From assembly GCA_036149055.1 (NCBI GenBank), contig JAYZQJ010000224.1, positions 1 to 34,127 on the forward strand: DNA of 34,127 nucleotides, given 5' to 3'. The notes beneath the pieces were generated by a model. It worked only from the letters and a program-made list of their open reading frames with translations. It ran no database searches and had not been told where the DNA came from. This document shows, piece by piece, positions 685 to 3,837 of the stretch. The position numbers and the translations under genes are program-made. This stretch comes from Myxococcota bacterium (GTDB taxonomy: Bacteria; Myxococcota_A; Polyangia; Polyangiales; Sandaracinaceae). How positions within the stretch are numbered: position 1 is the stretch's first letter; the number at the start of each line of letters is the position of its first letter.

Positions 685-1578
685 ATGAGCATCGAAGCCC
701 TCGCCTGTCCGCACTGCACCGCGCCGATCGCGCCCGACGGCTGGAAGTCGGCGGTGTGCGCGTACTGCCGGAGCGTGCTGGTGGGCTTGCCGCGCGCCTG
801 GTGGGCGCGACCGGTCCCGGTGCCGCCGTGGTCCGGTCGCTCGGCCGACGCCGGGGCGCCTCGGGTCCGGCTCGGTGAGCGCGCGTGGGTGCTCGGCGCG
901 CGGCTCGGGGTGGGCGCTCACTCGGAGGTGTTCCGGGCGCGTCGCGACGCGCGGCTTCCGCTGGGCGCGGTGTTGAAGGTGGCCACCGACGACGGCGAGG
1001 CCCTGCGCCGTGAGCTGCGGGTGATCCGGCGGCTGCGACAGAGCGCGGCGCGAGGGAGCGACCACTTCGTGCGGCGGCTGCCGGCGCCGGTGGCGAGCGG
1101 CGCGCTGCGCGGCGACGCGATCTCGGCTGGTGGCGCGCCGTTCGCGGTCGCCTATCGCGCGCGCCCCGGCTTCACCCGCACGCTGGCCGACGTGCGCGGC
1201 GCCGTGGATCCGCGGGTGGCCGTCTGGGTGGGCAAGCGTCTGCTCGAGCAGCTGACCTGGTTGCACGGCGCGGGCTTCGCCCATCGCGCGATCGCCGCCG
1301 AGCACGTGCTCGTGCACGAGCGCGATCACGGCGCGACGCTGATCGGCTGGTCGGAGGCCCGCTGGCTCGGCGGCGGTGACCCGGCGTCGCATCGGGCCGA
1401 CGTCGCGGCCGCGCTCGAGGTCGCCGGCGCGCTGCTCGATCGGCGGGCGCCGCGCGCGCTGCGCCGCTTCTTCCACGCCGCCGGATCGACCGACGCGTGG
1501 GCTCGTCACGCCGCGCTGGTCCGGGTGTCCGCCGAGACGCTCGGGGCGCCGCGGCACGCACCGCTGAACGCAAGCTGA
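685..1578 (+). CDS. Zn-ribbon plus protein-kinase-fold protein (probable pseudokinase)
   Basis: Start at ATG 685 (MSIEALACPHC...CAYC). Gly loop LGVGAHSEV, AVLK lysine, helix-C Glu present; catalytic loop reads HRAIAAEH and the DFG position reads IGW. Confidence 0.8.
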   Translation: MSIEALACPHCTAPIAPDGWKSAVCAYCRSVLVGLPRAWWARPVPVPPWSGRSADAGAPRVRLGERAWVLGARLGVGAHSEVFRARRDARLPLGAVLKVATDDGEALRRELRVIRRLRQSAARGSDHFVRRLPAPVASGALRGDAISAGGAPFAVAYRARPGFTRTLADVRGAVDPRVAVWVGKRLLEQLTWLHGAGFAHRAIAAEHVLVHERDHGATLIGWSEARWLGGGDPASHRADVAAALEVAGALLDRRAPRALRRFFHAAGSTDAWARHAALVRVSAETLGAPRHAPLNAS

Positions 1579-1588
1579 GGAGGTCGAC

Positions 1589-2494
1589 ATGGGATACGGG
1601 AGCTACAGCATCGACGCGCACCGCGCGCTCACCACCGCTCGGGCCAGCGCGCCGCGCGAGGTCATCTTCGAGCAGCGGGACTGCCACCCGTTGATGAACC
1701 CGAAGGGGATCCGCGTGCGCGAGAGCCGCGACAGCGAGACCCACCCCGAGTCGATCGGCGTCGTGTTCGCGCTCGACGTGACCGGCTCGATGGGCGCGAT
1801 CCCCGAGCGCCTCGCCCGCGAGGACCTGCCCACCTTGATGGAGCAGCTCCTCGCGGTCGGCGTCGAGGACCCGCAGGTGCTCTTCATGGCGGTGGGTGAC
1901 GCCACCTGCGATCGCGCGCCGCTGCAGATCGGGCAGTTCGAGTCCGAGGCCGAGCTCATGGATCAGTGGCTGACCTGGAGCTTCCTCGAGGGCGGGGGAG
2001 GGGGCGGCGATCGGGAGTCGTACGAGCTCGCGATGTACCTCGCGGCGCGTCACACCGCGATGGACTGCTGGGAGAAGCGCGGGCGGCGCGGCTACTTCTT
2101 CATGACCGGCGACGAGAACCCGTACCCGTTCGTGTCGCGACGCCAGGTCGAGGGGCTGGTCGGGGACGCGCTCGACGACGACCTGCCGGTCGAGCGGATC
2201 GTGGAGGAGCTCGCCGTGACCTACGAGCCCTTCTTCCTCATCCCGGACGCGAACCGGGCCCGCCGGTGCGGCGATCGGTGGCGCGAGCTGCTCGGCGACC
2301 ACGTGCTCGAGCTCTCGAGCCCAAAAGACACGGTGCACGTCGCGGCGGCCATCGTGTCCCTGTGCGAGGGGCGCCTCCCGAGCGTCGACGCGGTCGGGGA
2401 GCAGCTCCGCGCCGCCGGCCTGTCGCGCGCGCGGGTCGGCGGCATCGTCTCGGCGATCGCGCCGTTCGCCGACACCTGGAGCCCGGCGGCGTGA
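1589..2494 (+). CDS. von Willebrand factor A (VWA) domain protein
   Basis: GAGGAGG RBS; MIDAS-like DVTGSMG, downstream GGGGG..ESY loop and FMTGDE. Confidence 0.85.
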   Translation: MGYGSYSIDAHRALTTARASAPREVIFEQRDCHPLMNPKGIRVRESRDSETHPESIGVVFALDVTGSMGAIPERLAREDLPTLMEQLLAVGVEDPQVLFMAVGDATCDRAPLQIGQFESEAELMDQWLTWSFLEGGGGGGDRESYELAMYLAARHTAMDCWEKRGRRGYFFMTGDENPYPFVSRRQVEGLVGDALDDDLPVERIVEELAVTYEPFFLIPDANRARRCGDRWRELLGDHVLELSSPKDTVHVAAAIVSLCEGRLPSVDAVGEQLRAAGLSRARVGGIVSAIAPFADTWSPAA

Positions 2495-3837
2495 GCCGAC
2501 GCGCCTCGATCGTCGTCGACCTCGGCTTCGGCGACGCGGGCAAGGGCACGGTCGTGGACTTCCTCGTCCGCGACCGGGCCGCCTCGCTCGTGGTCCGCTT
2601 CAACGGCGGCGCCCAGGCGGGCCACGGGGTGGTGACCGACGACGGCCGGCGCCACGTCTTCGCGCAGCTCGGCGCGGGCTCCTTCGTGCCCGGGGTGCGC
2701 ACCCACCTGAGCCGCTTCGTGGTGGTGCACCCGACCGCGCTCCTGGTGGAGGCGCGGCGCCTCGCGGCGCAGGGCGTGACCGACGCGCTGGCGCGGCTGA
2801 CCCTCGACGAGCGCGCGCTCGTGACCACGCCCTACCACCAGGCGCTCTGCCGGCTCCGGGAGCTGGCCCGGGGGGACGCCGCGCACGGGACCACCGGCGT
2901 CGGCGTGGGCGAGACGATGCGGGTCGCGCTCGAGGCGCCGGCGCTCGCCCTCCGCGCGGCCGAGCTGCGCGAGGGGCCGCGTCTCCGGCGCAAGCTCGAG
3001 GCCCTCCGGGATCACGCGGCCGCCGCGCTCGACCGGCTGACGAGCGACGACCCGCGCTTCGCCGTCGAGCGCGAGGCCGTGCTCTCTCCCGCCACCCTGG
3101 ACGCGTGGATCGACGCCCTCCGCCCGCTGCGCGCGGCGCGGGTGGTCGAGGGCCCCGAGGGGTTCGCGCGGCGGCTGGCCGAGGCGCGCGAGCTCGTCTT
3201 CGAGGGCGCGCAGGGCGTCTTGCTGGACGAGTGGCGCGGCTTCCACCCGCACACCACCTGGAGCACCTGCACCGCCGACAACGCGCTGGCCCTGCTCGAC
3301 GGCTGGGACGGCGAGATCGAGCGCCTCGGCGTGCTCCGGAGCTACGCCACGCGCCACGGCCAGGGGCCGTTCCCCACCGAAGTCGACGCGCTGCGGCGGC
3401 TGCCCGAGGCCGACAACCTCGACGCGGGCTGGCAAGGCCGCTTCCGGCGCGGATGGCTCGACCTGCCGCTCCTCCGCTACGCGCTCGCGTGCTGCCCGGT
3501 CGACGGCCTCGCGCTGACCCACCTCGACCGTGTGGAGCCCGGCTGGCGCGCCTGCGTGGGCTACGTCGAGCCGGTCGACCTCACGCCGGCCGTCGACCCG
3601 CACGACCTCGATCACGTCGAGCGGCTCGGTCGCCGGCTGCGCGCGGTGACGCCGATCCTCGAGCCCACCGGACCCGACCTCGCCTCCTGGCTGTCGGAGC
3701 GCCTCGCGCCACCGATCCGCCTCACCTCGTCTTCGCCCACCGCGTCCGGCAAGCGCTGGCGACCGGTCAGCTCCGCTGGCGAAGCAGCGCCCAGAGCGCC
3801 ACGGCGACCAGGATCGTCGCCGCGCCCGCGAGCGTGA
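2491..3837 (+). CDS. Adenylosuccinate synthetase-like protein (divergent PurA-family paralog)
   Basis: GTG 2491 overlaps the VWA stop (GTGA). Motifs DLGFGDAGKG, NGGAQAGH, HGTTGVGVG, FEGAQGVLLD, YATRHGQGPFPTE, RRGWLD, LTHLD. Confidence 0.9.
   Translation: MSRRASIVVDLGFGDAGKGTVVDFLVRDRAASLVVRFNGGAQAGHGVVTDDGRRHVFAQLGAGSFVPGVRTHLSRFVVVHPTALLVEARRLAAQGVTDALARLTLDERALVTTPYHQALCRLRELARGDAAHGTTGVGVGETMRVALEAPALALRAAELREGPRLRRKLEALRDHAAAALDRLTSDDPRFAVEREAVLSPATLDAWIDALRPLRAARVVEGPEGFARRLAEARELVFEGAQGVLLDEWRGFHPHTTWSTCTADNALALLDGWDGEIERLGVLRSYATRHGQGPFPTEVDALRRLPEADNLDAGWQGRFRRGWLDLPLLRYALACCPVDGLALTHLDRVEPGWRACVGYVEPVDLTPAVDPHDLDHVERLGRRLRAVTPILEPTGPDLASWLSERLAPPIRLTSSSPTASGKRWRPVSSAGEAAPRAPRRPGSSPRPRA

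Follow-up and report, generated by a model that had tools for sequence, protein, structure and literature searches.

To our knowledge, only two reactions have been described for enzymes of the PurA fold, one leading to AMP and the other to the Z base, and both of these use aspartate. We analyzed a 34,127-nt stretch of DNA (the window) from a Myxococcota bacterium of the family Sandaracinaceae (GenBank assembly GCA_036149055.1, contig JAYZQJ010000224.1), in which positions 685 to 3837 hold a three-gene cassette encoding a zinc-ribbon pseudokinase, a von Willebrand factor A (vWA) protein and a PurA-like protein. An earlier note on this DNA had proposed that these genes form a dedicated nucleotide module, acting possibly during phage attack or nucleotide depletion. 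The cassette is a real, conserved and apparently undescribed system, and its sequences lead us to propose, with a probability of roughly 40%, that it encodes a NAD-stress ligase that would link a purine nucleotide to the amine of a peptide provided by the vWA protein.

Several described systems resemble the cassette in part. Canonical PurA (EC 6.3.4.4, PF00709; PDB entries 1ADE and 6ZXQ) has the same fold, P-loop, catalytic Asp and His, purine-binding Gln and GTP-specificity Asp, but where PurA has the loop TTGRxRR the cassette enzyme has WQGxFR, a Val is replaced by His, the Thr that binds the IMP phosphate and an inter-subunit Arg are lost, and a vWA protein is an obligate partner. PurZ and PurZ0 of Z-genome phages are also phage-borne PurA paralogues with changed substrates and belong to the same PHROG; however, according to the accessible text of PMC12884076, PurZ replaces Asp13 with Ser and keeps the aspartate donor, whereas the cassette family keeps Asp13 (83/83 homologue rows), changes the donor pocket and is not accompanied by Z-cluster genes. 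The TerY-P triad, which the accessible text of PMC10542128 describes as a vWA protein, a PP2C protein and a zinc-ribbon Ser/Thr kinase, likewise unites a vWA protein with a zinc-ribbon kinase fold in a three-gene block. The cassette, by contrast, has a degenerate kinase that can be replaced and that bears its ribbon at the N terminus, its third gene encodes a PurA-fold ligase, and it includes no PP2C, for which the block has no room; no PP2C-like cluster was recognized among the recurring neighbors. NrtR regulons (PMC2330246, accessible text) share with the cassette the GT-N7-AC operator, which it has in common with pncB-nrtR, as well as linkage to pncA, pncB, nadE, nadM and NAMPT. The pathways NARP1 and NARP2 (preprint 10.1101/2024.02.11.579819) share its linkage to NAD genes and its presence in phages, but their cores, as given in the accessible text, are Adps plus Namat or Nampt plus Nmnat, and none of the three cassette genes belongs to those families. 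No PurA-fold enzyme was seen in the accessible parts of either of these last two sources, and term searches of the accessible text of PMC9503650 and PMC7824862 returned no mention of PurA. No published description of the cassette was found, although the supplements of PMC2330246 or subscription papers could still mention it.

The cassette and its upstream region are composed as follows.

685-1578, + strand: zinc-ribbon pseudokinase gene, 297 amino acids, ribbon at about 706-768
1589-2494, + strand: vWA gene, 301 amino acids
2491-3837, + strand: PurA-fold ligase gene, 448 amino acids, GTG start
1579-1583, + strand: ribosome-binding site GGAGG, read from the sequence, which supports Met-Gly as the start of the vWA protein
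653-673, unstranded: predicted NrtR operator, a 21-bp palindrome with a GT-N7-AC core, 11 nt 5' of the first start codon
638-643, + strand: TTGACC, a possible -35 hexamer, read from the sequence

The co-orientation of the three genes, the 10-nt spacer between the first two (1579-1588, with GGAGG inside) and the GTGA overlap of the vWA and PurA-like genes at 2491-2494 all agree with the earlier note, as do the identities it gave the products. Since GC at the third codon position is 91-97% in all three genes, all three open reading frames are true coding frames. Overall GC is 75.5% in the cassette versus 73.1% in the genome, and the nearest named homologues of the cassette are from Sandaracinaceae.

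An alignment of the vWA family used as bait matched at least 591 stretches in representative genomes and 372 in IMG/VR, from which 77 and 80 loci, respectively, were analyzed; the reciprocal bait, the PurA-like protein, gave 529 viral matches, from which 79 new viral loci were analyzed. The 77 bacterial loci came from Myxococcota, Betaproteobacteria, Verrucomicrobiota, Chloroflexota, Planctomycetota and Acidobacteriota. A PurA-like gene was present at 69/77 bacterial vWA loci (five of the eight misses lay at contig ends) and at 77/80 viral ones (all three misses at contig ends), and a vWA gene was present at 76/79 of the loci found with the PurA-like bait, the three misses being cut upstream at contig ends. 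When the gene for a vWA protein of the Met-Gly type had no PurA-like gene next to it, the genome carried one elsewhere (5/5). The kinase gene lay 5' of the vWA gene in 74/77 bacterial loci, again with the three misses at contig ends; among the 80 viral vWA loci, 30 had the kinase, 43 had an unrelated 113-amino-acid gene instead, none had both and 7 had neither. The vWA and PurA-like genes are an obligate core, and the pseudokinase is replaceable. Thus, the neighborhood search suggested by the earlier note found a dedicated, conserved module that recurs across phyla, phages and plasmids, distinct from housekeeping purA; the three-gene unit that had been proposed stands as a cassette, but its obligate part is only the vWA and PurA-like pair. 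The 113-amino-acid gene in the kinase slot (L032:6658-6996 and 42 other viral loci), which is mutually exclusive with the kinase, had no Pfam or PHROG match, and its atlas matches were all <0.9.

Among GenBank phage records, 219 contained the pair (200 from Mycobacterium, 10 from Rhizobium and 6 from Vibrio), including cluster C mycobacteriophages; in phage Catera the order is kinase, vWA, an 88-amino-acid gene and PurA-like. The cassette was also matched in 21 plasmid records. Its distribution is patchy, since 30/301 genomes of the phylum sample matched. One variant locus (L333:4172-9114) has the order kinase, vWA, pyruvate-kinase-like, PurA-like, and its vWA protein contains a long insertion. 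A locus on a Rhodovulum plasmid (L209:4104-7029) is decayed: it lacks a PurA-like gene and holds nrtR, a truncated kinase gene and a fusion of the vWA gene with a TonB-receptor tail. Genes for TROVE/Ro60 proteins (11 loci) and for RNA-ligase-like, HAD RNA-repair and R2K ATP-grasp proteins lie near the pair in phages (L034, L038, L047, L083, L099, L025 and others), hinting at a repair neighborhood around it.

The PurA-like protein matched PF00709 (E = 1e-63), and its scores lay far below the equivalog cut-offs of both purA models (TIGR00184, 139.9 versus 395.55; NF002223, 177 versus 402) and the cut-off of the PurZ model (47.5 versus 300). The catalytic Asp and His, the P-loop and the GTP-binding residues of PurA are retained in the family: Asp15, Lys18, His45 and Asp346 are invariant in the 83 aligned rows, Gln241 is found in 82/83 and Thr256 in 81/83, and Arg319 is kept. 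Residue roles in Helicobacter pylori PurA, including the aspartate loop Thr-Thr-Gly-Arg, were taken as the reference from the accessible text of PMC11276676. Relative to this enzyme, neither the aspartate loop nor the adjoining Val is preserved; Thr-Thr has become Trp/Phe314-Gln315 (Gln315 in 83/83), residue 317 is variable (Arg in 13/83), Val has become His289 (83/83), and Asn309 is found in 81/83. The IMP pocket is changed as well: Asn is replaced by Gln (83/83) and Thr by Cys (64/83), the Arg that the second subunit contributes is not conserved, and the 5'-phosphate pocket also has a new Trp/Arg257. Because the new residues are invariant and not the product of decay, we infer a working enzyme with another amine donor and probably another 5' group; its chemistry looks the same as that of PurA and its substrates look different.

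The genome has three PF00709 matches. One (L001) is a separate, canonical PurA whose His motif is the usual one and whose loop reads TTGRPRR, as the earlier note would have expected of a genome in which the cassette copy is not the housekeeping enzyme; the cassette copy is 32% identical to it. The third match, L002 (G000:C23:11160-12395, - strand), is full-length, has Gln in place of the catalytic His and altered IMP and aspartate loops, and is possibly a pseudo-enzyme.

The vWA protein has no Pfam match and falls in PHROG 2971, which is annotated as of unknown function. No solved structure matches it by sequence, and its AlphaFold model (predicted local distance difference test [pLDDT] score, 94) has a vWA fold for which the closest structure is integrin beta-6 (Z = 16.2; root mean square deviation, 2.9 Å; 193 residues aligned). 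Like integrin beta-I-type domains, it combines a Rossmann-like fold with a DxSxS-type motif and downstream acidic metal ligands. The residues of the metal ion-dependent adhesion site (MIDAS) type are D63/T65/S67, D104, E143 and D175, of which D63, S67, E143 and D175 are each found in 83/83 rows; E143 is presumably the equivalent of the integrin MIDAS Glu. The N terminus carries a conserved motif, M-G-x-x-x-Y/W. In 130 of 150 representative homologues, the core motif lay 30 or more residues into the protein, and these full-length proteins began with Met-Gly in 121/130 cases and with MG-x3-aromatic in 118/130; the spacing from N terminus to core varied, most commonly being 43-54 residues. When Gly is the second residue, the initiator Met is normally cleaved off, so that the alpha-amine of Gly becomes free. 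The vWA genes are sometimes duplicated or orphaned, and the PurA-like gene is mostly single-copy.

A complex prediction for the PurA-like and vWA proteins scored 0.00, with one copy of each submitted and PurA being a dimer. Covariation was analyzed over 237 paired rows (effective number of sequences, ~180), and the top pairs within each protein resembled plausible contacts. Pairs between the proteins reached z = 6.8, compared to 3.8 after shuffling, which also removes shared ancestry, and were scattered; 2 of the top 20 pairs join the N-terminal arm of the vWA protein (positions 14 and 3) to PurA-like position 284.

The product of the first gene has a CxxC-x13-CxxC ribbon and, by structure comparison, a protein-kinase fold. 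In 70 aligned homologues, the beta-3 Lys was kept in 60 and the alpha-C Glu in 57; the catalytic-loop Asp was found in 14, the Asn in 2 and the DFG Asp in 4, and no homologue had both Asp residues. The copy in the window has Ala, His and Gly at these three positions, and the protein, which does not have the residue set of an active Ser/Thr kinase, is by sequence a pseudokinase across the whole family. The zinc ribbon was present in the bacterial copies checked and absent from 19/19 viral copies; the Catera copy had a weak DnaJ match.

The earlier note had placed the genes under one AT-rich promoter. The region is indeed AT-rich (640-684, 44% GC versus 73% for the genome), but the scan around the cassette found neither a sigma-70 consensus promoter nor a terminator, and the AT-rich stretch at 653-673 is instead a predicted NrtR operator, which would overlap the spacer and -10 region of a promoter with TTGACC as its -35 hexamer. 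According to the accessible text of PMC2330246, NrtR sites have the core consensus GT-N7-AC, and ADP-ribose suppresses NrtR binding to DNA. With a scoring pattern drawn from this genome (9.9 Mb; maximum, 16/16), three boxes scored 16/16, namely, that of the cassette, one directly 5' of pncB-nrtR and one 5' of a Zn-dehydrogenase operon. The genome encodes two NrtR proteins and so has both the 21-bp GT-N7-AC palindrome at a promoter and nrtR. The box is conserved 5' of the cassette in six related genomes. In five relatives, the exact pattern occurred at one to three distinct places per genome, compared to 0 for the reversed-pattern control; these places were pncB (four genomes), the cassette (three), a dehydrogenase/amidotransferase operon (two), and a microbial PARG gene and an unrelated gene (one each). 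The third box of this genome (G000:C143:37375; L347; L349) stands before the Zn-dehydrogenase gene, which in relatives is followed by an asparagine-synthase-like amidotransferase gene, and is kept in two of them; the microbial-type PARG gene (L358:1515-2399) lies directly 3' of the same box in a genome of the same genus.

Across the family, a box score of at least 14 was found 5' of the kinase gene in 9/83 loci versus 14/6479 other windows, and NrtR was encoded by 7/7 box-bearing family members versus 1/5 box-less relatives; all of these genomes are kin and not independent. In Accumulibacter (L143), nrtR is divergent from a run of pncA, pncB, nadE, nadM/Nudix, kinase, vWA and PurA-like genes, with a 3-nt gap before the kinase gene. 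An nrtR-like gene flanks the cassette in 6/8 plasmid loci inspected; two actinobacterial plasmid genes of this kind have a weak or absent Pfam winged helix-turn-helix match and a GT-N7-AC palindrome of their own upstream. In several phages, nrtR and NAMPT genes adjoin the pair (NAMPT in L058, L221, L255 and L260). The link to nucleotide stress drawn in the earlier note is therefore borne out by the box and the NAD-salvage neighbors, but the trigger points to NAD+ breakdown, with ADP-ribose as the signal, and not to general purine depletion. The NAD link is not universal; NAD-salvage or nrtR context is found in a minority of loci.

The ligase that we propose would act as follows. NrtR, as predicted from the DNA, would repress the operon until ADP-ribose from NAD+ cleavage lifts the repression. 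The PurA-like enzyme with GTP-Mg would then phosphorylate O6 of a hypoxanthine-type nucleotide, judging from its conserved residues, and this nucleotide may bear more than a plain 5'-phosphate. The amine, in view of the changed pocket, would come not from aspartate but from a peptide of the obligate vWA partner; the best candidate would be the vWA N-terminal glycine after Met removal, or else a peptide held at the vWA metal site. The protein would thereby acquire a purine nucleotide, attached via C6-N, as a covalent tag or sink that would help the cell or phage to withstand NAD+ loss, and the pseudokinase would be a replaceable, possibly nucleotide-binding regulator. The more specific form, in which the enzyme links the nucleotide via C6 to the vWA N-terminal Gly as an ADP-ribose-induced switch or sink under NAD+ depletion, we consider rather unlikely.

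Several observations weigh against the proposed ligase. No gene that would remove or use a protein tag is evident among the neighbors. The occurrence of Gly2 in 83/83 rows of alignment A3 is partly circular, the rows having been picked with an MG-starting profile, and the first residues of the vWA model are fairly ordered (pLDDT, 79). Only those 9 of the 83 loci carry a box of score 14 or more before the kinase gene. NAD genes were found in the fetched flanks of only 7/77 bacterial and 5/80 and 9/79 viral loci, and NrtR was encoded by 9/21 cassette-type genomes versus 87/300 overall in the phylum sample, with our own genome and one fragment match left out. Among 50 records of large carrier phages, chosen from 66, NAPRTase or NAMPT was present in 12, and not in Catera or Va1, a count without a size-matched baseline, since the 80 RecA-bait contigs were all <100 kb.

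A sister vWA family (HHalign, 99.8%), which lacks the clade-specific motifs RESRDSxxHP and KR of the cassette proteins, adds a further point of this kind. Its N terminus is fixed too: the proteins start with MY in 117/120 cases, the start being MYSW with M1, Y2 and W4 invariant, so that N-terminal anchoring of vWA proteins may be structural. The sister gene adjoins nadM in 4/5 loci and a pyruvate-kinase-like barrel and a nadE-like gene in 3/5; our profile detected no PurA-like gene in any of the four genomes (4/4) whose only vWA family was the sister one, and single-protein patterns gave no viral match for the sister family. The pattern fits a vWA N terminus that serves as the substrate of whichever enzyme accompanies it, and a structural role would account for the pattern equally well. 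The operons in question (L324:5374-9713; L325:4651-11833; L326; L327; L129) combine a vWA gene, usually with a C-terminal zinc ribbon, with nadM-like, pyruvate-kinase-barrel and glutamine-dependent nadE genes, and the sister vWA with its barrel might be a parallel module.

A different use of the same enzyme would be metabolite repair, in which deaminated adenine nucleotides (IMP, IDP-ribose, ITP/dITP and hypoxanthine NAD) would be re-aminated or capped with a small amine other than aspartate, the vWA protein being an activating subunit; the adenine side of the NAD pool would thereby be restored, as in the phage NAD reconstitution pathways. The placement of the cassette within NAD-salvage operons and beside phage NAMPT genes speaks for repair, as does the altered 5'-phosphate pocket (Thr to Cys, the lost Arg and the new Trp/Arg257), a change in keeping with a larger 5' group. 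The barrel between the vWA and PurA-like genes of L333 is a further point in its favor, and more phage metabolite-rebuilding pathways are expected in the accessible text of the NARP preprint (10.1101/2024.02.11.579819). Repair would, however, leave the obligate vWA protein with its conserved N-terminal Gly unexplained, and no lyase or amidotransferase recurs among the neighbor clusters. Canonical PurA with a Nudix enzyme could, moreover, already recycle IMP. On balance, we regard repair as possible but somewhat unlikely.

A stress-induced isozyme is less probable still. Such an enzyme would make adenylosuccinate from IMP and aspartate, with the vWA metal site holding the aspartate carboxylate in place of the lost loop; the catalytic residues are intact, the vWA protein is most like integrin beta-I domains, and the metal site of those domains binds an Asp carboxylate. 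The aspartate loop and Val are, however, not merely lost but swapped for new invariant residues, and a canonical purA is present in a genome whose cassette has no pur neighbors.

The phage-attack role suggested in the earlier note fares similarly. In its abortive form, the vWA protein and pseudokinase would sense infection and release the PurA-like enzyme, which would then deplete GTP or purines. The accessible text of PMC10542128 includes stand-alone antiphage modules among vWA-kinase triads of the TerY-P type, and that of PMC9503650 places NrtR-type regulators at the head of predicted antiviral ADP-ribose modules. PADLOC, however, gave 0 matches for the vWA and PurA-like proteins and only generic, weak kinase matches, and the neighbors in the window are housekeeping genes. 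Because hundreds of large phage contigs carry the cassette (the GenBank and IMG/VR matches given above) and the window is not a defense island, a purely anti-phage role is improbable. A PurZ-like enzyme making a modified DNA base would accord with the common PHROG (1211) and with the RefSeq name of the Catera gene ('2-aminooxy adenylosuccinate synthetase'), but is very improbable given the retained Asp13, the low PurZ score, the lack of recurring DatZ/MazZ-type partners among the neighbor clusters and the wide occurrence of the family on bacterial chromosomes.

The rest of the window is ordinary, with permease, P450, radical SAM, GGDEF-EAL, histidine kinase and similar genes; a Pfam scan of 25 further open reading frames in it found no pur or defense genes, in line with the earlier note as regards pur. 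The 3' end of the PurA-like gene (3767-3837, 71 nt) overlaps the end of an amino-acid permease gene that converges on it, and no terminator was found there. Positions 1-110 hold a short tandem repeat of 12- to 16-nt units, which encodes a Gly/Ala/Ser/Thr-rich linker of the divergent upstream gene. In RNA runs (contigs only), coverage was low and patchy across the whole stretch, neighbors included.

The PurA-like family, often annotated as plain adenylosuccinate synthetase or PurZ, is a third branch of the PurA fold, in which the amine donor appears to have changed and a vWA partner to be needed. Its carriage by cluster C mycobacteriophages makes it testable in Mycobacterium smegmatis. If the cassette does act in NAD+ stress, it would add an extra, unknown step to the conflict between phages and bacteria over NAD depletion, and if the amine is a protein N terminus, the reaction would modify proteins in a new way.

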